In this document: piece after piece, positions 1 through 52,277 of the stretch
How positions within the stretch are numbered: the stretch's first letter is position 1
Layout: each line of letters opens with the position of its first letter
From: Raillietiella orientalis
Lineage: Eukaryota
Direction: 5' to 3'
Assembly (NCBI GenBank): GCA_036172245.1
Contig: JAYWIR010000116.1
Location: forward strand, 1-64,000
Length of the DNA stretch: 64,000 nucleotides
Notes under the pieces: model-generated
The model's database searches: none
Seen by the model: only the letters and a program-made list of their open reading frames with translations
What the model was told of the DNA's origin: nothing
Position numbers and translations under genes: made by a program

Positions 1-2909
1 ATCCGTCTTTACTCTAGGACTCCCGACGATCGACGCCTGGCGGAGTATAAAGCTAGGGCTGAGCGACAGACCCGGCAATCCGTGTCGGCCAGCTTGCTGG
101 ACGCCCAAGTCCAAAAATGCTCAGCTCCGGCGTAAATCAACCGCATCCTGCAAGACTATTACTCCTTCTACGCGCGTGGAACATCAGAGCGCGCCGTGGC
201 GCAGCGCTAGCTGCCGCAATGCGTCCATGCGTTACAGGAGGAGCATACACATCAACTCGAGGAGCCTTTCTTGATGGCGGAGATCGTCTCCGCCATCGGA
301 AAGCTCAGAAAGAGGAAAGCCCCAAAGGAAGACGGTCTGAACGCGGAGTTCTATCAAGGCTTCGTGGCAGAGCTGGCCTTCATGGTGCATAGGCTTTGCA
401 TGCTGATCCGAGAACAAGGGGACGTCCCCAAATCGTTCCGGTGGGCTAGAGTACGTCTCCTGCCGAAACGAGGAGACAATAGCAACGTAGGCAACTGGCG
501 TGCCATCATAGTAGTGAATGCGGATGCGAAGTTGCTTGCCAAGCTTTGGGCTGAGCGACTGGGACGGGTGGCGGAATCCGTGGTGAGTCCGGAGCAGACA
601 TACGCTGTTCTTTGACGAACCATGGAGGCCAACCTGTTTTTCGCCAGTACATGGTGACAGTTGCAACAAAGCGAAGAGCAGGGAGGTCAAGAGAATCCTG
701 GATTTTCATCAGAACAGGAAGGGGACGCCGTTCATAGAAGAGCCGCGCCCGGTGCCCTTGCGGTCGCAGTCGATCTACGTAAAGCGTTCGATTGCGTCGA
801 CCAGGAACTCCTTCTGGAGCTCCTGGAACGCTTGGAATTCCCGGCCGTCTTCTGGACTTATTTCCGCTCCTGCGGGAGCTTCGTTGTAATAAACATCTCT
901 TTTAGCGGCCGGCACGTCTACAGCATGCCGGTTCGGCGTTGCATAAGGCAGGGTGACAGTCTGAGCCCCTTGCTCTTTAGCATCTACTTCGAGCTGGTGC
1001 TGAGGACATACAAAGAGACTCTGGCAACCCTGCCAAGCACGTGTCCCGGCACGCCTGCCGTGTCGGCCTACGCCGACGACCTTCTGCTCCTGCACCTCGA
1101 ATACACTTCGGCGTCGGCGCTCGAAGATTTCTTTATGTTGCTGCGCTGCGGGACGGGCCTCGAGGTGAACAGAGAGAAATCTTCCATCGTTCCAACATCA
1201 CGACTACTTTTAAGCAATACGGCGTGGGCCGGACGGCCGGACTGGATCCGCTTGGATATCTCCACGGGCAGGTGCTTCAAGTACCTTGGCGTTCCGTTGG
1301 AGGACTTCTGGGCTGCAGAAGCCTGGTTTGACCATCTTCAAAACGCAGCGTTGGCGATCGGTCCGTTCTAAGAAAGCAAGTTCCACTTGCAGGAACGGGA
1401 CGCGGTGTGGGACGCGTTCGCGGCCCGGCTCCTTCGCCCCCTACTTTTTGTTTGACCCGCTCCTTATTTTATTCGAAAACGAGCAGCGGGCCTCCTGAGA
1501 ACAGTTTTTTGGGGAAAAGGGAGGTCCCGTGTGAAGCTCAAAGACTTGTGCGCTCCACGTAAGGACGGTGGACTTGGCGTACTTACGCTGGAGCGCATGG
1601 AACTGCAACTACAATTCAGGACTTTCGCACTTGCCGCCGAATTGTGGGACACGCCTTGGTGCGTTCCAGCACGCCTACTGGCCCAACGATCCTCCGGATC
1701 CGGCGGACTTTTGTCATTTCTGTCTGCGCGCGTCTGCAGAAGAGCACACTGTGGCTCTATGCTGCGACGCAGCCTCGTTGCGATTCTTCAGAACGCCTAG
1801 ATCTCCTGCCTCCCAGGGAAGTACTCTGTCTGGTTGCACGAGTCAGTTTCCACCTGGGAAAAGATCTACGTTCCGGCGGGCACAAGGAACACTTGCCTGA
1901 AAAGGCACGTCCCCTGGACGCTGCAGGAGATCGTGCAGTCCCACGACAAGCTTCTGTGGGCCTTGATAACCCTTCTCACCCCAGTGCTGCTCTTTCTTGT
2001 GAATGCCAGGGACAGTAGCGATCAGGGGAAATGGACCGTGTCCTGCATCATAAGCGGCAGTACACAATCGATAAAGGCGTTGGCATCTCGACAGCTATCT
2101 GCCGCTGCGACGCCGAGTGTCCCGCCCAACGGAATTCGACGCTGGGTCGAGCTACTCGGAATATCTCCGGAGGAGATGAAGTGGCCCCCAACGTCCTGGA
2201 ACAGTGGATCCCTCCCCCTCAAATGGCAGGAGGTGACGTTGCTTGTAATTCATTAAGGTTTACCCTGTAAAGCACGCCTGTACCACATCACCCGGGGGGC
2301 TGTGGATCCCCAGTGCGACCGGTGCGGGGTAAAAGAGACCTTCCCCCACCTTCTCTTTGAGTGCAGTGCCATCCGTTCTTTATGGAATCGCCTTACGGCG
2401 ATCCTGCACTTGCGCGGATGCGGCCCCAAGGACGTTTTCAGGCGCCTCTTCTGTAGTGACGCCTTGTCCTCCCCCGCTTCTGTAGCAATCCTCTGCTGCT
2501 TTCGAGGGATCGTGGCGGCTTGGAACGCCACCAGAAGAAGACGTCAGCTAACTGGCAGTGCCTTACGATGGACTCGCCTATTCGTGCGAGCTGTATGCAA
2601 GTGGCGCCACTTAGGCGCACAGAGGACACAGCTTGTCCAGATCCTGAATAGGATCTAGAGGACCTTTTCGGGCGCATAGTGATCCCCTCCTTGCGCTCCC
2701 ATCCCTAAAACATTTATTCCCTCCCGTATTTAAACTTTTTGTTTGTTTTGTTTTTTCTGTCCCAATCCCCTTGCATCGGTAGGACCTCTCCGGCCTAGCG
2801 CCGGCAACCAGCATGCTGTTTTGGCGTGGTGCACCTTCTGATTCTTCACTCTAAAAATTAATGTATTTTTATTTTTCGAAAGAAATGCCTTGGCATATCC
2901 GGGTGAAAA
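1..2909 (+). mobile_element. Tx1/L1-like non-LTR retrotransposon, copy F1: 3' part of decayed ORF2 (linker, RT, C-terminal zinc finger) and 3' UTR; cut by the window start
   Basis: KAPKEDGL, NWRAI, PEQTYAV, DLRKAFD, RQGDSLSP, AYADD, FKYLGV and CDRCGVKETFPHLLFEC motifs broken by stops; T-rich 3' UTR ending AAATGCCTTGGCATATCCGGGTGAAAA. Confidence 0.92.
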
Positions 2910-4093
2910 CTGCGGGAACGTGAATGCGCTCCAGCGTAACCGTGCATTCTCGGAGAGTTGTTACGCGCGGTACGAATTTTGCTCTTGTTTCGGAGTCCGC
3001 CTGCTCTCCTTTCTTTGATACATGCTTGTCGTTTTTCTGTTTTTTGGCTTTTACTAGCTGCCAGCCCTGTTCTTTTTGTGCGGTTGCGGGAAGATTTTTT
3101 TCCGGCGCCGCGCTTGGAGCTTGAGTTTTTGGCTGCTTTTCTTGCCAATTCCCCGTTTTTCCGATTTTTCTTCCCCCGCGCGTTTCCCTTGCGCCTTTTT
3201 GGCGGCCGAGGGAATCAAGGTAGGGCGTTTAGGGCACACAAGACGGACGTATCCCTTCTCCCCGCACAAGTAGCACTCGATGTTTGGGCACCTCTTTCCG
3301 ATGTGTCCGACCGCATCGGAGTAGACGAAATACCGTGGCTTGCAAGCATACCAGAGGTCTACCGGTTCTCCTGCGACCTCAAGTTTGTGGGGAAGCTTGG
3401 CATCGTCTTTTGGGGTTACACGTGCCGCGGCGACGCCCCCAAATTGGCGCCCGTATCCCTCAAAGATTGTGTGCTTCGCTGACAGCGCGTGTACGTCCCC
3501 GTATTTACTTAGTTCTTCTTTGACGGCAGTGCGCGTCATGCGCTTAAATATTCTTGTCAAGTGGACCACTACCGAGTGGTCCATTGACACCAAGAAGATC
3601 TAACGGCCGTTGTGATCAGCGGGGTAGTTATCAGGCGATCGGATATGCTCATGCTCATGCACACCAGCTCAATGCGCAGCGCCCCGCTGAGCACGCACAG
3701 ACCTTCCAGATCTTCCTCAAAAACAATATTATTTTGAAGCACTCTGCTAAAAGAGCGCGCCGTTTTGTTTCAAACAAAGGGCCTACCTTGTACACAAGTG
3801 CTGACTTGTATCCACAGGCTTGATAAACGGCTTCCTCGGCCAAGGCCTCCGCACGAAGGCCGGCGACCATTGCGCTCCAAGACTTCGCCGGCTGCAAAGA
3901 CGGTCCAGGGGCTGTTGTTCCCATATCTGTAGATTGTGTGGGAGGATTTGCCCCCCACGACTACATCCACCGCGGTGTCCTCTGGCACGGCTGTTTCCGG
4001 ACCCCGACGACACACACTTAACACCTAACTACACAAAAAACTTCGGTTGTTTCCCAGACAAGCGCTAGCAAAGCGCCTAAAAAACACGTCCAC
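2910..4093 (-). mobile_element. B/C-like element: 5' UTR and N-terminal two-thirds of ORF1, truncated where F1 ends
   Basis: 5' GGACGTGTTTTTT; PEDTAVDV, GYKSALVYKVG, DLWYACKPRY, knuckle CYLCGEKGYVRLVC; ends at TLRECTVTLERIHVP. Confidence 0.85.
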
Positions 4094-7000
4094 CCACACC
4101 GACTTTCGGCGAAGGCCGGAAGCCGCTGAGCATTTTCGCGGATTCATACGAGGTTTTAGCTTGCAGACGCTTCAGTACTGGGACCGCTTCAAGCGCTCGG
4201 TCCCGGAGTTTTCCGATGAGTTCCCTATGAACCTCCTGCCTGCAGGGTTTGGTGAAAGCGCGCGTAACGAGAGATGGTGTTTACAAGCTCGATGTTACGC
4301 GCGAACACCAGAAGTACGCAGGCTAGCCGAATACCGTGCGGGAGCCGAGAGGCAGCCGTAGGAATCCGGGTCGGCCAGCTTAATGTACGACCAGGGCAGG
4401 GAGCACTCGGCCCCCGCCCAGGTAAAAGGCTTATTAAAACAATTCTACTCCTTCCTGTACGCACGCGCTCCAGCGGAACGGGATGTCTCGCGACTCCTTC
4501 CAAGAGGCGCTCCGGCGATCAAAGAGAAAGATAGAAAGACCTTCGACGAGCCTTTCACGATGGGCGAGATCAACTTGGCCATCGGAAAGCTCAAGAGGCG
4601 CAAACCTTCCGGGAAGGACGGCCTGCCAGCAAAATTGTTTCACTATTTCGCGGCGGAGCTCACTCCCCTGGTAAAGAAACTCACCTTGCTGATCCGCGAA
4701 ACGGGCTACGTCGGTGCCTCGTTTCGTTCGGCAAAGGTGCGCTCCCTCCCTAAGGGAGGAGGCCTTCGGAGCATGAGCACCTGGCGGTCGATTACTGTGA
4801 TCAAGGCGGACGCCAAGTGGCTGTCGAAATTGTGAGCTCAACGCCGGAAGCAGTTAGCGGAAAGCTCCATTAGCCCGAAGCAGACATATGCTGTTCCCGG
4901 TCGTAGAATGGATGCCAACCTGTTCCTCGCCAGCACCTTTTTCGCGCTGCAACAGGAAAGGGTCAGAATGGGAAACCGGACTTCCGGAATGTCCGCCGCT
5001 TGTAAACGGGATCGTTATGAGGAAGGGAGCCCTCGCAGTTGCACTCGATTTGCATAAAGCATTCGACTGTGTCGACCAGAGTCTCCTCTTGGAGCTCCTG
5101 GAACGCTTGGGCTTCCCGGTTTCTTTGCTGACCTACCTGCGATCTTGCTTTCGCGACGCGCTTATCCAGATCTTTTTCAGTGGACACACCGTGCACGGTG
5201 TACCAATGCGACGCGGCATACGGTAGGGAGACAGCCTGAGTCCCTTGATCTTCGGTACCTACTTCGAGTCGGAACAGAGAGCGTACAGGGAGACTCTGGC
5301 GCACCTGCCGCGCGACTATCCCGGTACGCCCGCAGTGTCATCATATGCGGACGACCTACTCCTGCTGCTACCTATGACCACCTCGGCATCGGCGGTCGAG
5401 GAGTTCTTCGACCTGCTAAGTCGGGGAACCGGGCTTGAGATGAACAGGGCGAAGTCGTACGTCATGCCTGTTGGTGTTGCACGGGCAGGGCATCCGGACT
5501 GGGTCCGTTTGAGGATCCCCACCATACGGTACTTCAAGTAAATCAATGTACCGATGGGTGATTATCTCCCTTGGGATGAGTGGTCCAGCTGCCTTCAAAA
5601 GGTAGAGACGGCGATCAGCCGGTTTAAAAGATGCAGGTTTTTCCTGCCGGAACGGGCCGCGGTGTGGAACGCGTTTGTGGCCTTCCTCCTCCGTTCCCTG
5701 CTTTTTGTTCGTCCCTTCATCACAGAGACTGAAAAGCGGACGGAGGACCTCCTATGGAGTGCCCTGTGGGATAATGGGAGGGCCCGTGTCCTGCTGGAGG
5801 ACTTGAGCGCTCCGCGTCTGGACGGCGGTCTCGGCCTCCTAACGCTAGAGCGGCTGGAGTTCCAGATCCAGTTTCGGTTACTCGCCCTATTGGCGAAATA
5901 TTGGAATAGCAGCTGGTGCGAGCCCGCACGTATCCTCGTCGAAAAGGCTACAGGCAAGGTGGGAATGTCATCCTTCCTTGCGCTCCGTCTTCGCCGCCAA
6001 GTCGGTCACTGCGGGTTGCAGCTGCGGAGAGTGGCTGACCTGATGAGGAAGAACTCAGGATGGCTCTGCTGTAGCCCCGTTAACGGACCTGCATGGCTCC
6101 AGGAAACGGTTCAGATGTGGGCAAGAAGCAACCAGGAACGCACCCAAGAAGGGCAGAGACAATTCTTCGCCCGTAAGAATCGCCCAACGCTCCGGGAGGT
6201 CCTGGAAAACCCCCCAAAACGAGCGTGGGCAAGAAAAACTTTCCTCTCTGCAATGCAGTTTTTGCTTGCGGAACATTTGGACGGAAACACTGCTTCGCAT
6301 TGGGAAGTGTATGCTAAAAACTCTAGTACAAAGAAAAAGATCGAGGAGTAGAAAACGGGAATTCTCTGCGATACTGCGGCCCGGATTACCATTCCTATTG
6401 GACTTGTGGGCTGTGGCGAGCTGCTAAATGTTCTGCGTAAACAATTAAAGTAGCCCTTGGTGCTTATGAGCACCTCCACCCTCCCCTTAATATGGGAGGA
6501 GTCGGCGCTACTGTTGCTGCATTGGGGACTCCCCTGCAACGCCCGCCGACACTATTGGACCTGGGGAGCGGGGAGCCCTAATTGTGCGAGGTGTGCAGAA
6601 CGGGAGTCACTCACTAATTTTTTTTTGGATTGTGTGGCTCTCCGGCCCCTTTGGAACCGTTTTGCCGCGGCAATCGGTATCCCGTGTGGTAACCCCAGAG
6701 ACGCAGTGAGATCCCTCTTCGTTTGCGACGCTTTTCGGCCTTCGGCCTCGTCAGCAGCCTCGCTCTGCTTTCGCAGGATCGTCGCTGCATAAAGCAAGGC
6801 AATGGGAGGAACACGCGATAAGGGTGCTGTCCAGCTCTCCGCCGAATTTATGCCAACGGCGACAGCATGGACCCATTTGGATTTAACAATCCAAAAAGAG
6901 CTTGCCGGCATCCTTGAAAGGATGTAACGGCCGCACAGCAGACTTTGATCCCTTTCCGAGCCATCCAGGTCTTTATTTTTTATATTTCTTTTTTATGTTT

Positions 7001-7176
7001 TATTTTTCGTTTTGTCCTTGGATCTTCTGCTGTCGTGGTGGACCGTACCGGAATACGAACCGGCGACCCGGCAGTCTTAATTTTGTATAACAGTGTGTGG
7101 CCGGAACACCAGCTCAGCCACCAACGCTTGTTTTATTCGAAAGAATAAACGCCCTGGCGCAACTGGGTGACAATAA
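4094..7176 (+). mobile_element. A-related element, copy G: decayed ORF2 from post-APE linker to C-terminus, plus 3' UTR
   Basis: DLHKAFD, SYADD, CARCAERESLTNFFLDC; 3' UTR resembles A1; ends AATAAACGCCCTGGCGCAACTGGGTGACAATAAA. Confidence 0.9.
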
Positions 7177-7239
7177 AGTTCACGAATGGCGGAGCTCCGA
7201 TGTTATTGGCGAAGATGCTCCTTCGCCTCCTAATTGCTA

Positions 7240-7462
7240 ACTCAATTGGCATTGTAAAAAATCCAGCGTTGTAGCGGTGCGCCTTTCCGACCGCTGTGAC
7301 AAAGCACTCGCCGCTTCCGACGACCACCCCTCTGTTGACTCCGTCGACAGCGAGGGGAGCGAGTCTTCGAAGGCGTTGGTCATCGACACCACTATCGATG
7401 ACGTAGCCTTTGCGCGAGCGGCGGAGGAGCTGGCTTTCTCGTTGCAGCCAGATCCCTCCAAG
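7240..7462 (+). mobile_element. A-family ORF1 tail fragment (host of B1)
   Basis: VIDTTIDDVAFARAAEELAFSLQPDPSK matches the A1/A2 ORF1 tail. Confidence 0.8.
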
Positions 7463-9911
7463 GTAAGTTGGACGGCGTGTTTTTCCTTCACTCCCAAAAG
7501 AGTCGTAGGAAAGCGCTTTTTCTTGTGTGTGGTGCTTTGTATACATAGTCGGTGTCCAATGGCTACGATGCCAGAGGAGACCGCGATGGAGGTAGGCGTG
7601 GGTGGGGCTACTTCGCCCCTAGAGCCTACTGGAGCAGAAGCAGCCGCCCCGGAATCATTCCCGGCCACGCCGAGGACATGGAGAGCCATGGTTTCCGCGC
7701 CCAGCGCGGAAGCTATGGCGGAGATGGCCGCATACAAGGCCTCCGGGTACAAGCCATCCCTTGTCTACCAGGTAGGCAACTTGTTTGACGGCAGGACTGC
7801 ACGCGCATTTAGCAGGGCGTTGCAGGAGTCGAATATACTAGGAAAGGATCTAGACTGCCTCTCCGTCCTCAGCGGCGGGCAGCGGGTCGAGGTGGTGTGT
7901 AAAGACGTCACCTTGGCTCACCGCCTGATTCATGCGCCGCTAAACGTTGACGGCCGCAAGATCCTGCCGATATCAATGGACCGCTCCGTGGTGGTCCACA
8001 TGACCGGCATTAGCAGCCGCATTACTCGCTCTGCGGTCGGAGAAGAACTACGAAAGTTCGGAAAGGAGCACGCACTGTGGCCCAAACCCACCATTTTTGA
8101 TGGCTACGGTAGCCTTTTTGGTGGTCAGGCTGCAGCGCGGGTCACCTCAAAAGAGAATTGTCGACTTTCCCACAAACTGAAGGTCGCGCAAGAAAGCGTG
8201 AACCTTTGGTACGTGGGGAAACCACGGTACTGCGGATACTGTTATGCCATGGGACACCTCCGTAAGAGGTGTCCTAAGATCCAGTGCCACCTGTGCAAGA
8301 GAAGGTCCACGTTAGGCGTGTGCGCCCCAAGCGCCCCAATCCGGTTCCCTTTGTCGCCAAAAAAGCACAAAGAAAACGTGCCTTGAAGGTCGCAAGACCT
8401 AAGGCGGAAAGTGTCCGCCAGAAGCTGCCAGAACCTCAACTTCCGGCGCAAAAGCCGGACGATAAACCTTCCGAAGTAATGGAAGGGGAAGAGGGCCTAA
8501 AACTTGTTGCTGCCAGAAAAGCTAAGAAAGGCACATCCGCGGAGAAGAAAGAGCATAAGCCGGCGGGGAAATCCAAAAAACCCGGTCCGCGCTCGAAAAC
8601 TCTGCGCGAGTGCACGGTTGCACTGGAACGCATCGTCGTTCCCGAGCTTGCCACCCAGAGCGAAGAGCCTCCCCTCGCCGTTGGCGCCGCGCCCGAGGTT
8701 CGCGACGTCGAACCCCCTGTTTACACAGAGGGTGAGCCGCGCGACATAACGCCGGTCGGAGCCGCGGACGCCGCGTTCGTGCAGGCGGCGGAGGAGCTCG
8801 CCTGAAAACCCCTCGCGCAAGGCCGTGCGGAGGCCGGCTCCGGCAAAGAAGGCCCCCACAGGTGAGTTAGAGCTGGCGGCCCAGAGTACATAATCCTCCT
8901 CAGAGGCACCCCCCAGGAAGTCGGGACGGAACTCCCAGAAGCCAAGGAGGCGCGTCCCCTTTACCAGCGAGGAGGAGAAGACGGAAGCCGTCGCCAGTGT
9001 GGGAACTTCGGAGGAGGAATTCCCACGCTTGGAAGCCGTCCAACCGGCCACCCCCATGGAGAAGGTTGAACAGGGGGTTGGCCGGTTCCATGGAGGAGGG
9101 CGAACAGGTATGCGCGACCCCACCTGTGGGTGACCCGCTCGACACGCCGTTACCTATGGAGGAGGGGAACAGGTGCCTTCAGCACCTGACCCTCCTGCTC
9201 CATCTAGCGTCCCGCCCCAGCAGGTGGCGGAAGCCGCATCGCCATCTTCCCATGAGTAACACCTGGGCTCGCCAGTCGCTGCCGGATTCGCGCGGCCTGT
9301 TGGAATGTCAACGGGCTGCGCGACGACGGTAACAGGCGAGATACAGCCGACACTCTGCGGGAGTTCGACCTGGCTTTGTTGCAGAAGATCCACGTGATCA
9401 CCGCGGAAGGCGTCTGACGATCAGACCGACTCGAACGATCTGATCGTCACGAATGTGTACGCCCCAACCGGTCAAAACGGATACAGCAACCGTACCAGGC
9501 TGCTTGAATCCCTGGAGCGCGACTGGTTGGCCAACACGAACTTGCGAAAGGCTCACCTGATAGCGAAAGATTCCAATCTCCGCCTGCTAACAGGTGAGCC
9601 TGAAACACAAGAGAAAGCGATGAAAGAGTTGTGCGCCGCCATGCTTGCGCGCAACTTGTTCGCGGGGGACCAGGGAATGGTCCGCAGCATCGACCACGTC
9701 TTCCTCGACGCTGACCTGTGTTCACGGGTCGGCAAACGGGGAAAGATTGCGTCGACGTTGTCGGACCATTCCCGGCTAATTTTCGAGATGCGGCCTCGCG
9801 ACAAGGGACCGCCATCCAGGGAGAGGCTTCTACCGGGGGACTGGACGCGACTCTCCGGTTCGAAGGATCACCTTCGCGAATTCCTGAGAGGCATCACGCT
9901 ATAGAGTCTTT
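7463..9911 (+). mobile_element. Element B1: 5' UTR, frameshifted ORF1 (7559-9259), APE with an internal deletion near 9410-9425; truncated at H
   Basis: MATMPEETAMEVG; knuckle CGYCYAMGHLRKRC; WNVNG, TNVYAP, SIDHVF, SDH motifs. Confidence 0.9.
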
Positions 9912-14827: not shown

Positions 14828-15942
14828 TTATCATCCGGGTGCGCCGAAGCGTTTATTACAAACTATACGGGAACAAAGTTCCCGGACAAAGGACATAAAG
14901 TAAAGAAGGGAGTGGGATCCCCGACACGCAGGTCGGTATGCCGAAAGTTTGGAACGGGAGGGAGGGGACCACAAATACACCGTATAGAAAAAATAAAAAT
15001 AAAGGTATGGAGGGCAGGGTACAGATGTCTTTGGTTATCCCGTTTCTTCATTTCAGAACCGGCGATGGATGCCGGCGATCTCCTTCCTCACGCTCTCTGG
15101 AAGATGCGCCCACTCGGCTGCCGACGAAATGCTAGCACTTGCTAAGCCTGTGGGCTGGAGAAGGATGGCCAACTTCTCCAGTTGTCGGTGGGCCTTGTCG
15201 ATGGCGCGAATGCAACACACGGTTGCAACAACAGCACCTAAAGACAGGCCGCCTGGCGTGAAGAAGCGGCGCATCAAATCTCTCGCGGTGTCCCCCTGGT
15301 GCAGGAGAGCTGTGGCCAGCCTTCGCCACAGTCCTAGGAGGGCACCGCAGTCCAAGAGCAGGTGCGGGAGCGTTTCCACTTCCCTGCACCGCTAACAGTT
15401 TGGGTAGACAAATCCCCCGGAAACAAGGTTCGTGCGCTGGTTGGAGTGAAAACCCCAATGCACCAGCATAATCACGTCCTGCTTCCAAGAAACTGGGAAC
15501 ACAGAAGTGTTCAAACACGAGAGAGGGACCACAAGTTCTACGGGGGGCACACTCAAGTGTTCGCTTTCCCGAAGCAGTCCCTTCGGTATGTGGCGAAGCG
15601 TGGCGGCATCTGCCAGCTCGCAAGTCCTCCAGCCGCCAATAGGTCGGGTTGTTCCTGCGATGGTGCAGGCGACCTCCCATCTCGCCGGATCGCAGCTGTC
15701 ATCTCTTCCCCTGAGGGCTGACAGCGCAACGGCGAGGGGCGTGACGGCCAGGCGAGTCCACTTCTCCTGGCTGTGGCACACTTCATCCACCGTGCAGTAC
15801 GGAGAGAGGTGAGCGCAACGGAGTTCCAGGAGGGAAACATTTTGGTGCTTTCCCTAGCCGTGCAACGGTTCCTGCCGCCAGGCTTGAAAGTTCGTTGGTC
15901 GGCAGGAGATTTATTCCTGGGCTTCCAGGTGCCGCTACACCG
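14828..15942 (-). mobile_element. Element D1, 5'-truncated (about 1.1 kb), antisense in C1 APE with a 14-bp TSD
   Basis: ORF2 C-terminus (WKQDVIMLVHWGF, ETLPHLLLDC); flanks GGGGGGTCGACCGT (14814-14827) and GGGGGGTCGACTGT (15943-15956). Confidence 0.9.
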
Positions 15943-31770: not shown

Positions 31771-32065
31771 GGGTTAATTTAGGTTAGTTTAGTTTAAGTA
31801 TGGTTAGTTCAAGTTAAGCAGGGTGAGTTTAGGTTAAGTAAGATTAGTTGAGATTAAGTAAGGTTACGTTAGGGTAGGTTAGGTTCAGTAAGGTTGTCTT
31901 ATGGTACGGTAGGTTAAGTTAGGGTAGGATAGGTTAGGGTACGTTAGGCTAGGGTAGGATAAATGAGGGTGAGTTAGGTTAGGGTAGGTTAAGTTAGGTT
32001 ACGCAGGATAGGTTTGGTGATGTTATGTGACGTTAAGTTAAGTTAGGTTAGCTTAAGTGAGGCTG
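31771..32065 (+). repeat. Degenerate pentamer array, (TTAGG/TTAAG/GTAGG)n
   Basis: e.g. GTTAGGTTAGGGTAGGTTAAGTTAGGTTA with about 5-bp periodicity. Confidence 0.9.
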
Positions 32066-32089
32066 AGTTCGGTTGTTTTCAGACTCCGT

Positions 32090-41000: not shown

Positions 41001-41420
41001 ATCCTCTCGGCCATCGGAAAGCTCAAGAGGCGAAAGGCTCCAGGGGAGGACGGCTTGCCCGCGGAGTTTTATCAAACTTTCGCGGCTGAGGTTACCCCCC
41101 TGGTACAGCAACTCACCTTGCTGATACGCGACACAGGTGACGTTCCCGCCTCGTTTCGTTCGGCAAAGCTGCGGCTCCTCCCTAAGCGAGGAGGTCTGAG
41201 GAGCATGAACAACTGGAGTCCCATCACAATAGTGAATGCGGACGCCAAGTTGGTGGCTAAGGTTTGGGCAGAGCGTCTGGGACGGGTTGCCAACATCTTC
41301 ATGAGCCCGGGACAGACATATGCTGTTCCCGGGCGAAGCATGGAGGCGAACCTTTTCCTCGCTTCCACCTGGCTAGAGCTCCAACATGAAAGGAGATTGG
41401 TGCGCAGCCGGAATTCCGGT
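38027..41420 (+). mobile_element. Element A2: 5' UTR, ORF1 (38121-39796) and ORF2 from 39796, truncated before the RT KAFD motif
   Basis: Near-identical inverted copy of A1 19640-23037; MPDATTRNGQG; TAATG junction at 39794-39798. Confidence 0.93.
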
Positions 41421-42968
41421 CAGTCCGTCAGTCATGCGACGGATGGTAGGATGGAGGAGATCCACTCCCTGCCCTGCAGGCGGCCTCAAAGTGGGGTTTC
41501 AGATTCTTCCTTTCCCTTCCTTTTCACACCTCTGCGCGTGCATCCATGTGCTCGCGAAGAACAGTTTGGCATCCATACTTCGCCCGGCAACAGCATATGT
41601 CTGCTCCGGGCTAATTATGGATTCTGCCACCTGCCCCAGACGCGAAGCCCATAGCACAGCAACCAACTTGGCGTCCGTATTCACAATCGTGATCGGACGC
41701 CAGTTGTTCAATTTTTTAAGGTCTCCCCCTTTCGGAAGGAGCCTCACTCTGGCTGACCGAAACGAGGCGGAAACATCGCCTTCGTCTCGGATCAGCCTTG
41801 GCATCTGAAGCAGCAGGGGTGCCAGCTCTTCCGCGAAGCTCTGATAGAACTCCGCGGGAAAGCCGTCTTCCCATGGAGCTTTCCGCCTCTTGAGCCTTTT
41901 GATACCGGCGAGAATTTCGCCGGTGGTAAAAGGCTTATCGAGGCTTAACGACTCCTCCACCCCTATTTCTGGGGCACCATCCGGAAGCAAGAGCCGCGAG
42001 GCTTCTTGATCCGGGGGCGCCCTGGCGTAAAGGGAGGAATAATAACTCCGCACGAGATGCCGTACCGACGCCGGGGACGAACATTCCTGGCCCTGGTCGT
42101 CCAGCAAGCTGGCCAACCCGGATTGCCAGGCTTGGCGTTCGGCCCCGGCGCGGTACTCGGCCAGGCGACGGAAATTAGGGGTTCGCTCGTACCTTCGAAC
42201 CTGTAAATAGGCCCGATGGTTGCGAGGACCCGCGCCGAATCCGGATGGCAGGCGGTCCAGGGGGAACTGCTCGCAGAACTCCCGGACCGATTCCTTAAAA
42301 AGGTCCCAGTCTTGGAGATTCCGGAGCGTGACGCCTCTCAGGTATTCGCGAAGGTGTTCCTTCGTACCTGAGAGTCGCGTCCAGACCCCTGGCAGACGCC
42401 AGTCCCTGGATGGAGGTCCTTTGTCGCGAGGCCGCATCTCGAAAATTAACCGGGAATGGTCCGACAACGTTGACGCAACCCTCCCCCGTTTGCCGACCCT
42501 TGAACACAGGTCAGCGTCGAGGAAGACGTGCTCAATGCTGCGGACCATTCCCCTCTCACCCGCGAACAAGTTGCGCGCACGCATGGCGGCGCACAACTCG
42601 TTCATCGCGTTCACTTGTGTTTCCGGCTCACCTGTTAGCAGGCGGAGATTGAAATTTATCACCCGGTCACGCCGGGGCGTTTATTAATAATAATAAACTG
42701 GTCAGGGACAATGTCCTTAACCAACAGAACGACAGAGAACATAGAAAAATTACCGGCACGCAGGCCTGGTAAACAAACCGCTCGCAGCGCGGGAGGAATG
42801 AGGGGAAACAAACAAAAATCAAAACCTGGAGGGAAGGGTAACGGGTTTTTGGTTAGGCTCCGTAATCACGGGGATTTACACGATGAGCACCTAAAAGGTT
42901 CCGAAGCCTATGGGGACGCATGTGTAAAAAGAAAATACAAATTTAGTTTATGGAGGGTAGGGCAATGA

Positions 42969-45900
42969 TCATCGGGTTGGCCGCTGATGAGAATGTGTAA
43001 ACCGGCGGTGTATTGCGGAGAGATTCCTCTTTGTCTCCTCTGTCAAATGAGGCCATCTAGCGGATGCTCCCATGTAGAAAGATGCTTTGCTGATAACCTC
43101 TTGGTGCTGTCCGTTGATCACCAACGCCTGGCGGACGGAAACTATCGCGCGTATGCAACCGATGGTTGCAATCCTTGCGCTTAGTGAAAGCCCGCTCGGC
43201 GTGAAGAATCGTCGCAGCAAGTCTCTTGCGGTGTCCACGGGATGCAATAGTGCTGTTGCCAGCCTACGCCACAGTCCTTGTAGGACACCGCAGTCCAGAA
43301 GTAGGTGCGGAATCGACTCCGTCGATCCGCACCGAACGCAGTTCGCAGACGCAAGTCCCCCGGAGTCACGATGCCAACGCTCGTTGCACTGAAAACCCCA
43401 GTGAACGAAAAGCAGCACGGCTTGTTTCCAAGCAAGGGGGAGCAGCGAACTGTCAATACACTGTGGAGGGACTACAAGTTCTTCTGCCCATCGGAGGAGT
43501 CCCTTTGCAGTAACACGAGGAGTGGCGGCGTCCGCCAACTCACTTGTCTTCCAGGTGCCAAGGAGTTTGGTTCTTCCCGCTATCGTGCAGGAAACCTCCC
43601 AACTCGCCGGTTGGTAACTGTCGTTTCTTGCCCTGAGAGCAGACAGCGCTGCGGCAAGAGGCGTGGCAGCCAGGGTAGAAAACTTCACCTCGTCCTGCAG
43701 TACTTCTTCCAAGAATCGTGGAAAAAATTGGCGCAGGGGGCGAAGACCTTCAGGGCGTATTCCTTGGAACGCCGCCCAGGATTCAACAGACTCCTGCTGC
43801 CAAGCTTCAAAGTTCATTGGGCGGCAGGAGATCCAAGTGTGTGCTTCCAGAAGTGCGGTCAACTGCCGCAATGGAAAACCGAAACACCGCTTCCTGTATT
43901 CAGTGCCCGGCAAAAGCGAGAGAAATCCTCCGCTGCCGGCGCATCTCCGCAGGAGAATGCGAGCTGGCACACACAGGGGGGATGTCCATAGCTGGGCACA
44001 CAGTGCCAGCAGTCGGAACTGCACCTGCAGTCCGATTCGCACCATTGTCAGGATACCCAAACCAGCATCCCGACGCGGAGCTGACAAATCTTTAAGGCGG
44101 ATCCTGGATCTCGCCGGACCCCAGAGAGCGTTCCTGAGCAGGCGCTTAGCCCGCTGTTTTGCCGCATAGGGGGGGTCCAAAACAAAAAACAGGGGACGGA
44201 GGAGGGGGGCCACAAAGGTGTTCCAAATAGTCGCCCGTTCCTGCAAGGTAATCTTGCCGTTAAAGAACGGGCTGATGGCCAACTCTGCTTTCTGAAGACA
44301 GTTCGCCCACGCTTCGGCTGCGCCGAAAGCGCCCAACGGAACGCCAAGGTACTTAAAGTACCCGCCGGTGGGGATCCCCAGGCGGATCCAGTCGGACTGC
44401 CCCTCCCACGACGTACCCACAGGAACGACCACGCTCTTCTCTCTGTTCACGCTCACGCCCGCTCCCCGACGAATCAGGTCGAAGAAATCCTCCACACTGG
44501 ACGCCGGGGTGGACATGGGGAGCAGAAGAAGCAGGTCATCAGCGTAGGCGGCCACGGCAGGCGTTCCCGGGCAGGAGCTTGGCAAGTGAGACAGCGTCAG
44601 CCTGTATGCACTTAGCACCAACTCAAAGAAGATGCTGAAGAGCAACGGGCTTAAGCTGTCGGCCTGTCGGATGCCCCTACGAACGGGAATACCATACACG
44701 CTGCAGCCGCTAAAAGTGATGCAGGTTAGCGCGTGCCGCCAGCACGCGCGCAAATACAGCAGGAGTTGCGCCGGGAACCCAAGGCGTTCCATAAGCTCCA
44801 AAAGCAGCTTCTGGTTTACGCAGTCGAACGCCTTGTGGAGATCGACCGCGACCGCCAAGGCACCTGGCTTTCCCTTCTGCCGTCGGCGCCTGTTCTTTTT
44901 GCCTGCGGCAGTGACTTTCGCAGCAGCCTGGCTTCGCTGCGCCACAACTTCCTGCAGCTGCATCCATGTACGCGCGAAAAGGATGTTCGCCTCCATGGAT
45001 CGCCCCGGAACCGCGTAGGTTTGTTCCGGGCTCACCACAGATTCCGCGATTCTTCCTAACCGCGCGATTTACAGCTTGGAAAACAACTTGACGTCCGAGT
45101 TCACCAAGGTGATCGGACGCCAGCTGCTAAGTTGGCGCAAGTCTCTGTCTTTCGGCAGGAGACGCACCTTCGCTGAGCGGAAGGAATCGGGGACATTCCC
45201 GGATTCACTCATCAGCGTCGCGAGTTTCAGCATCAAGGGAATGAGCTCCACTGCAAAGCACTGATAAAACTCTGCAGGGAGCCCATCCTCGCCTGGCGCC
45301 TTTCGTCTCTTCAGCCCAGCGATGGCGGACGAAAATTCATCCGCCGTGAAGGGCTCGTCGAGACGTTCGCGTTCCTCCTCGCCGACAACACGAGCATCCT
45401 GAGACAGGAGTATCTCAGAAAGAATATCCTCCGTCGGGGATTCCGCGTAGAGCGAGGAGTAGTAGCGTCTCACAATGCGGCGTACTTCGGCTGGGGCCGA
45501 ACATTCCTGGCCCTTGTCGTCCAACAGGCATGCTGCTCCGGACTGCCAGACCTGGCGCTCGGCTTTCGCCTTGTACTCTGCGAGACGCCAGACATCCGCG
45601 CGTCTCGAAAACGTGCGCGCCTGCAGAAAGTCTCTACTGTTGGCCACGCCCTCTCCAAAACCGCGTGGAAGCCGGTGCAAGGGGAATTGGCAACAGAACT
45701 CGCGGACAGATCTTTTGAGATCGTCCCAGTCCGCAAGTTCTTGAATGGCAAAGCCCCGGAGGTATCCACGTAGATGCTCCGCAGCCTCCGGTTGGCTAAG
45801 TCAATCCGCTTGCATCCTCCAGCTTTGCAACGGAGGCCCCCTGCCTGGCGGAAGGATCTCAAACTCCAACCTGTGGTGGTCAGAAAGCTCAGTCAACAAT

Positions 45901-46541
45901 CTTCCTCTCCTACCCACACGCGAATGCAGGTTTTCATCGAGGAAAACGTGATCGAGCGATCTTTCCATTCCAGGTTCGCTGACCATCAAGTTGGCGGCGT
46001 GCACGGACGCGCACATCTCGATGGTCAGCGCGCGCTCCCTCGGGCGGCTCCAATCGTCGGAGAGCAGGCGGACGTTGAAGTCCCCAGCGACGAGGTGCGC
46101 CACTTGGAAGCCGGAGCTGTTGAGCCACTGGCTCTGCACCTCACCAAAGAAAGCTACTCTTTCTTCGAGGTAGCGAGAGCCACTCGGCGCTTAGACGTTC
46201 GTAACGACGAGATCGATGGACTCGGACCACTTGATGACAAGCTGGCCTATCCGTCCGTTGTCATCGAAACGAACACTACGCACCGCTTCCGCCATTTTTC
46301 CTCTTACGAGGAACGCGACGCCGCACGTGTGTGCGCCGCCGCACCGCCAATGAAGCGTTCCGCCTGCGCGCTCCTCGATTTCGGCTGCCTGCTCGTCGGA
46401 GATTACGTGAATCTCCTGCAGCAGCGCGAGGTCGAAGGGGCGCAGGGCGTTGGCTACTAATCGCCTCTTCTCGTCGTTCTGCAGTCCGTTCACGTTCCAA
46501 CACGTTACGGACAGACGACGAGAAGACGCGATTCCCCGCAT
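42969..46541 (-). pseudogene. E ORF2 (APE-RT-zinc finger) with a few stops
   Basis: WNVNG, LQEIH, AGDFN, SLDHVF, SDH; 689-aa ORF with DLHKAFD, AYADD and CVRCGSTESIPHLLLDC. Confidence 0.93.
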
Positions 46542-48488
46542 TACTGCTGGGAAGGTGGCGGCTTTTTGCTCGCTTTATCCGGCGAGTAGACGGCGAGCAG
46601 CACGACTGGCAGGCGGGGACGGTCGCCACCGTCCTCTGTCGTGCTGCATGCATGTAATGCCTCCACGCCAGGCTGAACCCCGTCGGGTTTCGTGGAGACT
46701 TCGCGTTGCTTCGCGGCGAGCGTTGCCTGGCTGCCTACTTTTGATCGGCGCGCACACGCTTTCGAACGAGTTGTCCTCGTCTCGGTGATCGGAACGGCAT
46801 CCATTTCGGAGTCCGACCGGCGCATGTTCGATCGGGTTTCGGCCTTCCGCGAAGCAGTGACAGGTTCTGCTGGATTGACAGCTGTCCTGTTGTCTTTTTC
46901 CGTCTCCAGAGCATCGCTTTTGGTGACGGCTGCTTTCCCGGCGCGCGCGTTTTCAGCGTGCTCACGCGCAGTTGCACGAGGGACCTTTGCTGAAGTCTTC
47001 TTTACTTCATTACGGTTCCTCACTTCGCGTGGCGCCGTAAATGGAGATTGTGCTCCATTGCCATCTTTGAAGCCATCAGCGTCTTTGGACGGGAGCACTT
47101 TCGATGGCTTCGACACGCTCGTCATGGACGCTGCTTTCCGAAGGGCTTTCAATCCCTTCGTTGGCATGGCATCCGCGCCAGTCGAGAGCTTGCTCTCCGA
47201 CTGCGACGGCGTGAGATTTTTCTCCGCTTTCGCGGTGTTGGATCGCGACGCGGATTTTTTTTTGCCGACTTTCGAAGTCGACACGGCACAACCCTTCTTA
47301 CCCGATTTGGGCTTCTCAGCCACTGCAGGAGGTGAAGGAATGGATCTGACGGTACTGGAAGTGTCCTTACCGCCGTTGTCCATTGGCATCCCCGCCGGTC
47401 GCTCGAACTCCGAAAGAGCCGGGCGTGCTTGGGAAGGACAGCTATTGCGCCTAGGGGGACTTACCATTGCCCCGGATTCCCCGCACCCTTTCTTTTGCGA
47501 CTCCCCTGCCGCGAGAGGGGGCGCGCAGGACTTCGCGTGCGAGGTTTCCTGCTGCTTTGAAGCGACATTCCGCCTCGCGTTTTTTCGGAATTTCTGCCTT
47601 GGGGTCTCCAGATTTTTCGCAGATTTTTTCTTTTTATCCGCGCTTTGTTTCTTAAGATGAAGCTCCGCGGCTGCCTTTTTTCGCAAAAGATCCGGGCAAT
47701 TTTTCAATTGGTGCCCGGATAGTTTGCAATAACGGCATTTTCCAGAGGGGCATTTATCCAAACAATGCCCCTCCCTCCCGCATTGCTCGCACGTTCTTAC
47801 TTTGCCCGCGAACCACAGGTGAACGACCGTGTCTTTCACTTGTAGTTTCGTGGGCAGCAGACGGCGGTCCGGCATTGTAAGCCGGACTCCATCGACTCCG
47901 CTGTGTATGGACGGGAAGTCCTTGAGGTTGCTACGCATCCTCCACAGCGCATGGACCGTGGCGAATTTCGCCAACGCGTTCCGAATATCAATATCGGATT
48001 TTTCCGACTCGATGTCGAAAATCTCCGCCACAAATGAATCGTCCATGGCGTCCGGGAAGACCTTCTGCCCACGGATCGACAACGGGTGGCGCAGCAAAGC
48101 GTTGCACAAGTGCAGCGTCTTTGCAACGCACCTTGAAATAGCCCATGTCTTTTACGGGCATAATGGCGAGAAGGTCCTCCTCCCGCACGCCAACAAGGGT
48201 CAGTTCATCGTTGAACTGATTCCCGTCGCGCGCAGAAAGAAAACCACTCAACTTATATCGGAGAGCAGGTCTATAGCCTTGGGCTACGTATGCCCGCAAC
48301 TCCGACTCGTCGAGTGGTTTCCCTTTGACGGCTGCTGTGGCAGCAACGTCAGCAAAACTCCTCTCCATTGGCGAGAAAGACGAAGTGGAGGCGGCCGTAG
48401 GTTCCGCGATTGCAGATCCGGATGCCGTTCCTCCAACTTCAGTAGCTTCAAGTTGGGTCGACATCGTCGTCAAAATGTACGACGCCAA
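46541..48488 (-). pseudogene. E ORF1 (gag-like, two CCHC knuckles, long basic tail), one frameshift near 48110
   Basis: 166-aa plus 522-aa ORFs; CEQCGREGHCLDKC and CRYCKLSGHQLKNC. Confidence 0.88.
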
Positions 48489-50858
48489 GATGAAGCGGAT
48501 GAAAGCACGGAGACGAGAGCGAAGAAAAACACGTCCGCACTCGATTGAAATCTCCCGCTATAACGTGAGCCTTCCGCACGCTCGTGTTCGCCAGCCAGTC
48601 GCGCTTCAGGGATTCAAGCAGCCTGGTACGGTTGCTGTATCCCTTTTGACCGGTTGGGGCGTACACATTCGTGACGATCAGATCGATCGAGTCCGACCAG
48701 CCGAGAGTCAGCTGACCGACCCGACCGTCGTCATCGAAGCGCACGCCCTTCACGGCAGCGTCGATGGCCGGCTTCACGAAGAACGCGACCCCGCAGGTGT
48801 TGCGGATGCCGCATTGCCAGTACAGCCGACCCCCCGCGATCGTCTCGATCTCCTGGACGTCTGCCGCGGTGATAACGTGGATCTCCTGCAACAGGGCCAG
48901 GTCGAACTCCCGCAGGGTGTCGGCTGTATCTCGCCTGTTACCGTCGTCGCGCAGCCCGTTGACATTCCAACAGGCCGCGCGAATCCGACGGCGACTGGCG
49001 AGCCCAGGTGTTACTCCTGGGAAGATGGCAGTGCGGCGTCCGCCACCTGCTGGGGCGGGACGCTAGGTGGAGGAGGGGGGTCAGGTGCTGAAGGCACCTG
49101 GTCCCCCTCCTCCATCGGTGCCGGCGCGTCGGCCGGATCACCCGCAGGTGGAGTCGCGCCTACCTGTTCGCCCTCCTCCATGGAGGCGGGCTGTTCAGGG
49201 TCGGAACCTGCAGGGGAGACTTCACCCCCCTGTTCACCCTCCTCCATGGGGGTGGCCGCATCGACGACTTCCGAGCGTGGGAATTCCTCCTCCGAATTTC
49301 CCACGCTGGCGACGGCTTCCGTCTTCTCCTCCTCGCTGGTGGAGGGGAGGCGCCTCCTGGGCTTCTGGGACTTGCGTCCCGACTTCCTGGGGGGTGCCTA
49401 CGAGGAGGAGGATGTGCTTCCGGCCCCCAGGTCTAACTCACCTGTGGGGGCCTTCTTCGCCGGAGCCGGCCTTCGCACGGCCTTGCGCGAGGGGTTCTCA
49501 CGCTCGGCCAGCGTGACCGCGAGCTCCTCCGCCGCCTGCGCGTCCGCGGCGTCCGCGGCTTCGACCGCCGCTATGTCGCGCGGCTCACCCTCTGTATAAA
49601 CAGAGGGTTCGCAGTCGCGAGCCTCGGGCGCAGCGGAAACGGCAAGGGGAGGATCGACGCTCCGGGTGGCAATCTCGGGAACGACGATTCGTTCGAGTGC
49701 CACCGTGCACTCGCGCAGAGTTTTCGAGCGCGGACCGGGTTTTTTCGGCTTTCCGGCCGTCTTGCGCTCTTTGCTCTCCGCGGGTGGGAGTTTCCTCGGC
49801 TTTCTGGCCTCTACAAGCTTCCATCCCTCTTCGCCTTCCACCGTTTCAGATGGTTTATCCTCCGGCTTACGCTCCGGAGGTTGAGGTGTTGGCAGCTTGT
49901 GCTGGCCCTTTTCTACTTTCGGTCTAGTGACCTTTGAAGCACGTTTTCCCTGCGCTTTTTTCGCGGCAGGGGGAACCGTGGTGGGGCGTTTGGGACACAC
50001 GCGCCGAACTTGGCCCCGCTCCCCGCACAAATGGCATTGTATATTGGGACACCTTTTACGTAGGTGTCCCACGGTATCACAATGCCCTTAATACCGGGGC
50101 TTCCCTACATACCACAGGTCGACGTTTTCCTGCGCCACCTGTAGTTTGTGGGGAAGCCCACAATTCTCCTGTACGGTGACCCGCGCTGCAGCCTGCCCAC
50201 CAAAAAGGCTATCGAAGCCGTCGAAAATAGAGGGTTTCGGCCACAGTGCGTGCACCTCACCGTCCTTTCTTAATTCCTCACCAACCGCTGACTGCGTCAT
50301 GCGGCTGGTGATGCCAGTCATGTGGACCACCACGGAGCGGTCCATTGATACTGGCAGGATCTTTCGGCCGTCTACGTTCAGCGGCGCATGGATTAGGCGG
50401 TGAGCCAAGGTGACATCTTTGCAGACCACCTCGACCCGCTGCCCGCCGCTGAGGACGGAGAGGCCGTCCAGATCCTTCTCAGTAACGTTCGCGTCCTTCA
50501 ACGCTTTGCTGAAGGCGCGCGCTGTCCGGCCGTCGAACAAGTTGCCTACCTGGTAGACAAGCGATGGCTTGTACCCGGAGGCCTTGTATGCGGCCATCTC
50601 CGCTATGGCTTCTGCGCTGGGCGCGGCCACCATGGCGCTCCATGTCCTCGGCGTGGCCGGGGATGATTCCGGGGCGGCTGCCCCTGCTCCAGTAGGCTGT
50701 GGGGGCGAACTAGCCTCCCCCACTCCCACCTCCATCGCGGTGTCCTCTGGCGTCGTGGCCATTGGACACCGACGATGTACACAAAACACCACACAGAAGA
50801 AAAAGCGCTTTCCTACTACTCTTTGGGGAGTGAAGGAAAAACGCGTCCTCCAACTGGC

Positions 50859-52252
50859 CGCGGAGGGGTCTGGCTGCAACGATGCAGCCAGCTCCTCCGC
50901 CGCACGTTCGAAGGCGGCGTCATCGATCACGGAATCGATGACGGACGCTTCCGCCGGTTCACTCCCCACGCTGTTGACATATTCAACAGTGGGTTGCTCG
51001 TCGGTAGCAGCGATTTCTACAATGCGACGTTCGGCGGGGACGCGTTACACGACGACGCTGCATTCTTCTAAATTCCCGCTAACCTGCTGTTTTTTATTTT
51101 GGTAGGGGAGCTTTTTTCGATTCGTCGTTCTTTCTTCGACCTTTTTTTCTTTTTCGCTGTGACTTCTTGCCATTCCATCACCTACCCGCTTTTGTCAATC
51201 TTTTCGGCATTCGTTGTCGGGGTGTCGGCTCAGGCCTGGATCACGGGATTGGTTGCACAGCTTGAGCGGCATCCTTCGCCGCCAGTTTTTTCTGTAGCAG
51301 CCGCGCGCGTTTTTTTAGGTTCCTCGCGGAAACCACGCGCACAGCGGATTGTAGACACACTTCCTTCGTGTGGCCCATTGTCCCGCATACCAGGCACTGT
51401 ACATTGGGGCACCTCCTTTTGAGGTGTCCCGACGTGTTGCAGAAGCCACAGTATTTGGGCTTCCCCACGTACCAGAGGTCGACGCTTTCTCCGCCGACCA
51501 CCAGTTTGTGGGGAAGGGTAGAGCCCTCTTAAACGGTTACAAGGGCAGCTGTGAGGCCGCACTGAACTGTGGTACAGTCCTCGAAAGGACTAGGCTTGAT
51601 CCATACTGCATGGACCGTGACTTTTTTTTCCAACGCGGCGCGTAACTGTTCTTTCCGCATGCGCGCGGTTACTTCTAAAAGGCGGACCAGCATACTGTGG
51701 TCCGCCGTAACGGGAAGGAGCCTGCGTGTCCCCATTATCACGGGGGTTTTAAGGAGCCGTTGGGCCAGATCTGCATGTTTGCAGATCACCTCTACGTACT
51801 GCCCCCCGCTACGAATGGTCATAGCGCAGAGCTCCTATTCTTTAAAATCGAGAGCGCGCATCCGCTTCGAAAAGGCGCGCGCACTCTCAGCAGATTACAA
51901 CTTTCCTACCTTGTAGAATGGTGATGGGTTATAACCTTCTTCCACATAGGCAGATAATTCCGCCGCGGCTGCAGGCCATGGCGCCGACACGACGGCGCTC
52001 CACGCCCGCGCTTCAGCGGGGACCGGTTTTGTGGAGGCGGACACCCCCACCTCCTTCGCCACTGAAGGCGACGTTGCCGTCGCCCCCTGGCACTCCATTT
52101 CTTCAGAAGGCGACGTTGCCACCGCCCCCTGACACGTACTGGTGGTCGCGTCAGGCATTACTGCCTGATCGACCACCAACACACACGAAGCCTACACCTA
52201 GGAACGGTTCCCGGCACGAGGAACACCGTGGAAACACGTCCGCTCTAGCCAA
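50859..52252 (-). mobile_element. Diverged A-family copy A3: 5' UTR and ORF1 up to LQPDPS (host of B2)
   Basis: MPDATTSTCQG at 52158; knuckles CGFCNTSGHLKRRC and CLVCGTMGHTKEVC. Confidence 0.9.
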
Positions 52253-52277
52253 CGTAAATCTTTCGACTGCGCTCGAC
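52253..52277 (+). other. About 25-bp remnant of an RT KAFD target site
   Basis: CGTAAATCTTTCGACTGCGCTCGAC versus F1 CGTAAAGCGTTCGATTGCGTCGAC (778-801). Confidence 0.7.

Follow-up and report, generated by a model that had tools for sequence, protein, structure and literature searches.

Nested LINE families in a Raillietiella orientalis contig recur at nucleotide-precise sites in one another's coding sequences

Introduction

Some long interspersed nuclear elements (LINEs) pair one family with one target, as R1 does in the 28S rDNA and SART and TRAS do in telomeric repeats. Families of the Tx1 clade occupy snRNA, tRNA and 5S genes and microsatellites, and Tx1L of Xenopus targets another transposon, the DNA transposon Tx1D. 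The LINE Zepp, which carries poly(A), was first described at chromosome ends. Here we analyze a stretch of 64,000 nucleotides from Raillietiella orientalis (GenBank assembly GCA_036172245.1, contig JAYWIR010000116.1, positions 1–64,000 of the forward strand; the window), in which positions 1–52290 form two nested clusters of LINEs that encode an apurinic/apyrimidinic-type endonuclease (APE) and a reverse transcriptase (RT) and lack poly(A). We recognize 16 insertion events in the window, 12 of which fall in six site classes, and five of these classes are recurrent. On this evidence it is likely that each family inserts site-specifically, by target-primed reverse transcription (TPRT), into a defined sequence of its sibling elements.

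The closest described systems are the nested clusters of green algae. Zepp clusters of Coccomyxa ('Chlorella') C-169 measure 1.5–42 kb, have 61% GC against 53% for the genome, occur once per chromosome and are proposed centromeres (PMC3446292), and nested ZeppL clusters are reported from Chlamydomonas and relatives (PMC8226300; bioRxiv 10.1101/2022.06.16.496473). In the portions of these accounts used here, both are L1-group LINEs that encode APE and RT; their insertions go into existing copies and produce GC-rich nested clusters of tens of kilobases with few or no host genes. The window resembles them in that its clusters are GC-rich (55–62% over 1–29 kb and 32–52 kb, against 40–51% at 28–32 kb and 54–60 kb) and its nearest named proteins are of plant L1 type. 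It differs from them in that (i) several diverged families host one another; (ii) each family has a nucleotide-precise site, with insertions mostly antisense, and (iii) in contrast to Zepp, the elements end in hairpins, GGGT and a short tail rather than poly(A). What the same portions of the Zepp and ZeppL accounts describe is 3′ ends arrayed in tandem; defined targets in coding motifs do not feature in them.

Site-specific APE-type LINEs provide a second comparison class (PMC4640811, PMC7265360, as far as the excerpts of these papers extend). Like R1, Tx1L and SART, the elements of the window show one family at one exact multicopy target, target-site duplications (TSDs) of fixed length, a defined 3′ end that is not poly(A) and a putative safe harbor. 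In contrast to those systems, the targets lie in the protein-coding sequences of sibling LINE families, which serve one another as hosts. Self-nesting LINEs of the Zepp kind are thus already in print, and what appears to be new, judged against the parts of that literature considered here, is the multi-family, nucleotide-precise and mutual form, together with a target switch within one lineage. A literature search found no account of several families that each have their own defined target in the coding sequence of the others; that search did not extend to the original Zepp papers, and an earlier description of a Zepp target site is therefore possible.

If the interpretation is correct, it bears on several questions. 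Zepp-type clusters have been proposed as centromeres in several green algae, and families that read sequences found only in their siblings would have a simple mechanism for finding their own clusters. The closely related APE endonucleases of these families, with their different long targets, would also form a natural series. Such a series, in which one lineage has switched its target, would be useful for understanding, and perhaps re-aiming, the target choice of LINEs. Finally, they would offer a clear case of transposon–transposon interaction that is mutual and not one-way.

Results and discussion

Architecture and families of the elements

The two clusters, 1–29146 and 32182–52255, are composed almost entirely of LINEs. 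Fragments were mapped by tblastn, with the read-through second open reading frame (ORF2; 17794–21345, −) of a full-length reference copy, Aref, and two ORF1s as queries, and positions q1–1184 below refer to this read-through translation, with X at stops. RVT_1 and Exo_endo_phos are detected by Pfam in numerous frames of both strands; the two domains lie in a single reading frame of Aref (Exo_endo_phos 6e-11, RVT_1 up to 8e-24) and both are found in other copies as well. Aref has a 5′ leader followed by an ORF1 with CCHC knuckles, which are visible in the ORF1 translations of both the A and C families. Its ORF2 spans 1184 codons with three in-frame stops and comprises the APE, the RT and a C-terminal Cys–His motif, CDRCGERDSLPHLLVDC; a zf-RVT domain is detected on the copy at 63518–64000. 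Every copy here already contains stops or frameshifts. In both young A copies, two repeats of a 42-bp unit lie near the start of ORF1 (22836–22918 and 38146–38228).

The hallmarks of TPRT are present, namely intact 3′ ends, variable 5′ truncation and TSDs. We count 12 conserved 3′ termini in the window, each with two small hairpins followed by GGGT and an A-rich tail of 4–7 nt; the conserved motif before the tail is AATAAACGCCCCGGCG-N5–6-CCGGGT. A 5-bp hairpin in this motif is conserved at 10 ends; three of its pairs show wobble changes and one shows a both-sided (compensatory) change. Full-length 5′ starts read GGACGTGTTTT after a short family-specific leader, and 5′ truncation is seen in D1, D2, A′, H and S15. 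The TSDs measure 8 nt (E), 11 nt (Aref) and 13 nt (D1).

By amino-acid identity the elements form about four groups: an A group (Aref, A2, A′, H, S18 and A3), a B/C group (B1, B2, C, C2 and S14, with S15 and S2 more loosely attached), a D/E group (D1, D2 and E) and an X group (X1, X2 and a copy at the window end). Coexisting families are ∼50–70% identical in amino acids. An earlier note on this DNA had labeled the elements Tx1-like, a name that the database matches do not support: among named proteins the closest are of plant L1 type and carry zf-RVT (22–28% identity), and none of them is named Tx1. Among solved structures, L1 ORF2p and R2 come closest; L1 ORF2p is also found, with the L1 endonuclease, among the PDB sequence matches, and ESM Atlas matches consist of RT/zf-RVT clusters only.

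Insertions recur at the same nucleotide

The KAFD motif of the RT (q592) has received A-type guests three times, antisense and at the same nucleotide. Aref (17465–23040, −) is inserted antisense in C: its 3′ end (17464/65) comes after AAGGCGTTCGA and its 5′ end (23040/41) meets AAGGTGTTCGA, the 11-nt TSD AAGGYGTTCGA (17454–17464 and 23041–23051) has one mismatch and the host frame resumes on both sides. A2 (38024–41459, +), which runs from the A 5′ end to ∼q578 and is missing its 3′ half, has its 5′ end (38023/24) at AAGGCGTTCGAC of D2. A3 (50849–52255, −), an older A-type 5′ end with ORF1, meets AAATCTTTCGAC at its 5′ end (52255/56), where its host is a short RT remnant (52256–52290, +; AAATCTTTCGACTGCG.., translated KSFDC). 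All three 5′ ends adjoin AAGG/AAAT..TTCGAC in the antisense direction.

The GGRL motif of the APE (q86) carries D guests twice, again antisense and at one nucleotide. The 3′ ends of D1 (14827/28) and D2 (35940/41) both come after ..TCGRC(Y)GT. D1 (14828–15943, −), truncated to q926 through the 3′ end, interrupts C; it is preceded by GGGGGTCGACCGT and followed by GGGGGTCGACTGT, and its 13-nt TSD with one mismatch, GGGGGTCGAC(Y)GT, lies at 14815–14827 and 15944–15956. D2 (35941–38023, −) retains q591 to the 3′ end, comes after GGGGTGTCGGCTGT in C2 (33899–35940, +; 5′ start, ORF1 and APE to GGRL) and is itself interrupted at KAFD by A2.

Two C guests lie antisense at HR↓LPxGF (q315; the arrow marks the insertion point). 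C (12836–25136, +) is full length and is split by D1 and Aref into pieces at 12836–14827, 15944–17464 and 23041–25136; its host is A′. The host of C2 is S18 (32182–33898, −), a decayed A-like RT with a 93-nt PxGF remnant (FSPGFGEGLANSRDIL) that is closest to E. The full-length 5′ starts of C (12835/36) and C2 (33898/99) adjoin the L/F codon three codons before GF and are ≤1 nt apart.

The remaining classes comprise two sense insertions and one further antisense site. B guests follow ..AGTTGGA in the tail of an A-type ORF1 on two occasions, in the sense direction. B1 (7473–9910, +; 5′ start, ORF1 and APE to ∼q295) starts at 7472/73 after an A-type ORF1 tail fragment (7284–7472, +; protein similarity begins at 7256), and B2 starts at 50848/49 after A3. 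B2 consists of a proximal piece (48544–50848, −; 5′ start, ORF1 and APE to GDFN) and a distal piece (41460–42655, −; q182–576), and between them lies E (42656–48543, −), a full-length element inserted once, in the sense direction, at GDFN (q182) with the TSD ATTTCAAT and with B2 resuming on both sides. The last class, at NL↓QDWD (∼q295), was absent from the earlier note and comprises two older A-like elements, both antisense. A′ (9911–12835, −; q317 to the 3′ end, interrupted at HR↓LPxGF by C) adjoins B1 at ..ITL*SL with its 3′ end (9910/11), and H (4092–7175, +; q270 to the 3′ end) adjoins with its 3′ end (7175/76) the 108-nt E-like antisense ORF2 fragment S4 (7176–7283, −; ..AEHLR..AIREL). 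Both junctions come directly after the L codon of (R/Q)(N/E)L↓(Q/A)DWD, and the tails are GGGT+TTCAAGA for A′ and GGGT+GACAATA for H. Since A′ and H share this site, the target of the older A-group copies differs from that of the younger A copies. A placement of A′ at KAFD was considered and rejected, as homology with B2 and C puts it at NL↓QDWD.

The earlier note had already reported A in KAFD three times, D in GGRL twice, B in the A ORF1 tail twice and E in GDFN once, and each of these counts and orientations holds at the nucleotide level. Its third antisense insertion of C in PxGF does not join the other two. That element, S15 (26301–29146, −; q347 to the 3′ end), lies antisense in PxGF of S14 (25137–26300, +; B/C-like, from the ORF1–ORF2 spacer to PxGF), but its 3′ end (26300/01) falls 23 nt further along the host and it is only loosely C-like.

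The recurrent junctions are independent events

We compared the number of coincident insertion positions with a chance model in which the 16 events form 120 pairs on a 5571-nt element, in two orientations and with a tolerance of ±1 nt (p = 2.7e-4 per pair). Under this model 0.032 coincident pairs are expected and seven are seen (Poisson tail ∼7e-15): three at KAFD and one each at GGRL, PxGF, the ORF1 tail and NL↓QDWD. This excess bears directly on the suggestion that elements are directed to the cluster as a whole, for example by chromatin or by a centromere protein, with no sequence specificity, shared positions then reflecting a short nick preference and survivorship. The location of Zepp and ZeppL clusters at one locus per chromosome (PMC3446292, PMC8226300, within the portions used) could be produced equally by regional targeting, and such targeting would accommodate the events at unique sites and the many perfect sites that are empty. 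However, same-nucleotide, same-orientation insertions occur in five classes, and the nick contexts differ between families (TTCGA↓TT, CYGT↓AC and GAAAT↓C), and therefore one short shared preference cannot explain them. We regard regional targeting without sequence specificity as quite improbable.

An excess of coincident positions would also result if each junction class arose once and was then copied within the cluster by segmental duplication or gene conversion. Duplicated blocks do exist: an alignment of 14020–15933 with 35113–37044 crosses the C/D junction, and a related AT-rich repeat follows both clusters (30548–31651 and 54189–55359). The divergence of guests and hosts nevertheless disagrees with copying. 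At KAFD, Aref and A2 are 96.0% identical over 3393 nt, whereas their host flanks are 70.2% identical over 238 nt, and A3, at 78–79.5% identity to both, is an older event. In the A ORF1 tail, the B1 and B2 guests are 84.6% (1607 nt) and 91.8% (328 nt) identical, against 72.5% (189 nt) for the hosts. The hosts of C and C2 come from different families, and beside the junction LAKGFQEGPRNEK of A′ and the E-like remnant in S18 are alike at 19 of 48 nt (∼40%, by hand count); the hosts at NL↓QDWD are likewise of different families, the B family for A′ and an E-like element for H. Equal divergence of host and guest, which the earlier note had named as the mark of a copied insertion, is accordingly not seen in four classes in the window. 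For the D pair the values are similar (host 79.6%, guest 82.5%), so that divergence alone is not decisive there and this pair counts against our interpretation; D1, however, ends at q926 within its own TSD, and D2 extends to q591. Because guest and host divergences disagree, 5′ truncations differ and host families differ, the recurrent junctions are independent events and not copies, and independent same-nucleotide insertions of one family at a defined target are found in five classes in this one window. Copying is largely refuted within the window, and as a general explanation it is very unlikely. A duplication or gene conversion that included host flank was also considered for the 94% block 19642–23278 versus 41420–37786 and was rejected, the flank being only 70.2% alike on a separate alignment.

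For the sense insertions a different kind of copying has to be weighed, in which a guest landed once, was co-transcribed with its upstream host and was retrotransposed together with it as a composite unit. The main candidate is B with the A ORF1 tail. An alignment at 83% crosses the A-tail/B junction in both copies (7308–9080 versus 51013–49223), B1 is preceded by only ∼190–220 nt of A tail, as a 5′-truncated composite would be, and an open frame at 7241–8383 spans the A-tail/B1 junction. Yet divergence is significantly greater in the host part than in the guest (72.5% versus 84.6–91.8% identity), and the A3 copy that precedes B2 begins with an A-type 5′ end of its own, set at a KAFD remnant, as expected for an A insertion made in situ. 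The composite explanation does not apply to the antisense classes, and we judge it unlikely for the pairs to which it does apply.

Could the junctions instead be assembly chimeras, in which shared sequence led reads from different repeat families to be joined? The region is highly repetitive. The one public sequencing run with matching words (Logan contigs, word share 0.12) was aligned to 7001–27000, and of the 708 contigs placed, 422 are <90% alike and only 29 are ≥99% alike, too few to confirm the junctions read by read. Among the joints listed for this run, most are switches between paralogs. One joint, 14813 to 15943 (two contigs, nine shared letters), corresponds to a B/C-type copy without D; it may be a B2-like copy and is therefore not independent support. 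Misassembly would be expected to join homologous positions in the same orientation, whereas the junctions seen here set complete 3′ termini or 5′ starts against antisense host sequence, with TSDs. A chimeric origin of the junctions is extremely unlikely, and site-specific insertion is the interpretation that we carry forward.

Families host one another

The hosting relations are mutual between groups. Insertion between A and C is reciprocal: the host of C is A′, a member of the A group, and C itself carries a younger A-group copy, Aref, together with D1. Elsewhere, C2 contains D2, which in turn contains A2; A3 contains B2, which contains E; and B1 is the host of A′ and the E-like fragment that of H. 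The earlier note had proposed a circular network, of which the links A in C and D, D in C, C in A-like copies and B in A stand. The link from H to B does not: the 3′ end of H is in the E-like antisense fragment, and the element inserted in B1 is A′. Where the host family is known, guests are almost never found within their own group, although this is a trend only; the chance that five A-group events would all miss A-group DNA is ∼0.12, as estimated from element lengths.

The same note held that the targets are conserved coding motifs, and we ranked them by the mean pairwise nucleotide identity of 5-codon windows among ten lineages (1158 windows). Judged by this ranking, KAFD alone (rank 12) belongs to the most conserved sequence, the description fits GDFN (rank 150) weakly, and GGRL (rank 398) and PxGF (rank 412) are ordinary. 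The D target, GGRL, is conserved within the B/C group only. That each insertion also disables a competitor, as the note proposed, is conjectural; all copies are already broken by stops or frameshifts. Targets are unsaturated, with 8 uninterrupted KAFD, 5 GGRL, 6 PxGF and 6 GDFN sites in the window.

We also note that the Ala codon of KAFD is GCA in A-group copies (AARGCATTCGA; 19572, 12012 and 5056) and GCG at A target sites (AAGGCGTTCGA; 17454, 38023 and 44834). This difference may hint at self-avoidance by A, but the numbers are small and the perfect site in E is empty.

Events and joins that do not fit

Besides the similar divergences of the D pair, several observations weigh against site-specific insertion as a full account. 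Four of the 16 events lie at once-seen, unnamed sites or have an unexplained flank. These are (i) the 3′ end of X1 (1–2909, +; an X-group LINE cut by the window start), which lies as GGGTGAAAA antisense in ORF1 of S2; (ii) the 5′ start of S2 (2910–4091, −; a C-like family, 5′ start and ORF1), which adjoins H at ∼q269, a non-recurrent site; (iii) the 3′ end of X2 and (iv) the 3′ flank of C. The flanks of C disagree: on the 5′ side is PxGF of A′, antisense, and on the 3′ side the ORF1–ORF2 spacer of S14, sense. This mismatch shows that rearrangements have occurred, and some junctions may therefore be secondary. In PxGF, the S15 junction is offset by 23 nt from the other two, and the element comes from a distant family. 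Perfect target sites have been left empty, for example AAGGCGTTCGA in E and GGGGGTCGGCTGT in B2. At 41456–41459, A2 (+) at ∼q578 meets B2 (−) at ∼q576 head to head. Finally, the evidence is drawn from a single 64-kb window.

Some of these joins can be described further. The 3′ flank of C at 25137–25360 holds MEEGE-type repeats; a reading of this flank as the remainder of A′ was rejected, with similarity above shuffles in none of seven comparisons. At the A2/B2 join, which is palindromic, each element stops 31–43 nt upstream of its own KAFD, and one guess is that recombination took place between two separate A-in-KAFD insertions. D2 was considered as the 3′ half of B2 and rejected, its RT being 49% identical to C and 59% to E.

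Proposed mechanism

In the mechanism that we propose, each family or subfamily would integrate by TPRT at its own sequence within copies of other families. The younger A lineage would insert antisense at AAGGCGTTCGA (KAFD), and the older A lineage, represented by A′ and H, antisense after the L codon of NL↓QDWD. D would insert antisense at GGGGGTCGRCYGT (GGRL) of B/C-type copies and C antisense at HR↓LPxGF, while B would enter in the sense direction near the end of an A-type ORF1 and E in the sense direction at GATTTCAAT (GDFN). The site could be read by the encoded endonuclease or by annealing of the 3′ end. As the targets would exist only inside sibling elements, new copies would land in old ones and the cluster would grow by nesting. 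This habit may act as a safe harbor, and the pattern may extend genome-wide.

A broader proposal, which we advance tentatively and consider possible though far from secure, is that the window contains a guild of sibling LINE families that divide up each other's ORFs, with a nucleotide-precise site for each lineage that can be switched within a lineage, as in A from NL↓QDWD to KAFD. Targeting of this kind would suffice to build Zepp-type, possibly centromeric, clusters and to keep them confined, and a chromatin cue would not be required.

Similar sequences outside the window

A JGI metagenome contig encodes a 619-aa protein that shares 56% identity with E over 438 aa and has an uninterrupted KAFD, and the resemblance indicates that relatives of these elements exist in the environment. 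The 3′ motif AATAAAYGCCCCGGCR matched 118 loci in a metagenome scan. By tblastn, none of them (0/118) resembles ORF1 or ORF2, and they lack the extended 3′ motif; judged from their sequences, these loci represent chance matches or unrelated repeats. A scan of viral_contigs with a 699-aa ORF gave no match.

Other features of the window

No tRNA, Rfam RNA or recognizable host gene was found in the window. The AT-rich repeats that follow the two clusters have ∼40% GC and are 73–77% alike; no protein family was found in either. Between the clusters lies a degenerate TTAGG(G)/TTTAGG-like repeat of ∼280 bp (31779–32055, G-rich strand +), which may be an interstitial telomere-like tract and is notable in view of the first description of Zepp at chromosome ends. 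More distant LINE material is present at 56039–57654 (−), 58783–59229 (−) and 60188–60889 (−), where we find an RT 28% identical to that of Aref, a zinc-knuckle ORF and an ORF1 at 43% identity.

Near the window end, at 62792–63496, are two tandem units of 348 bp that are 94% alike, each consisting of the 3′ untranslated region and terminus of an X/Y-type LINE followed by GCAAACGGCGGACGC. From their sequence, the units look like repeated insertion of heavily 5′-truncated copies at one site. Double or tandem insertions of R1 and R2 (bioRxiv 10.1101/158386, in the part considered) similarly show repeated insertion at one target giving rise to arrays, like these tandem 3′ ends; as described there, they differ in being single-family events in host genes or satellites.

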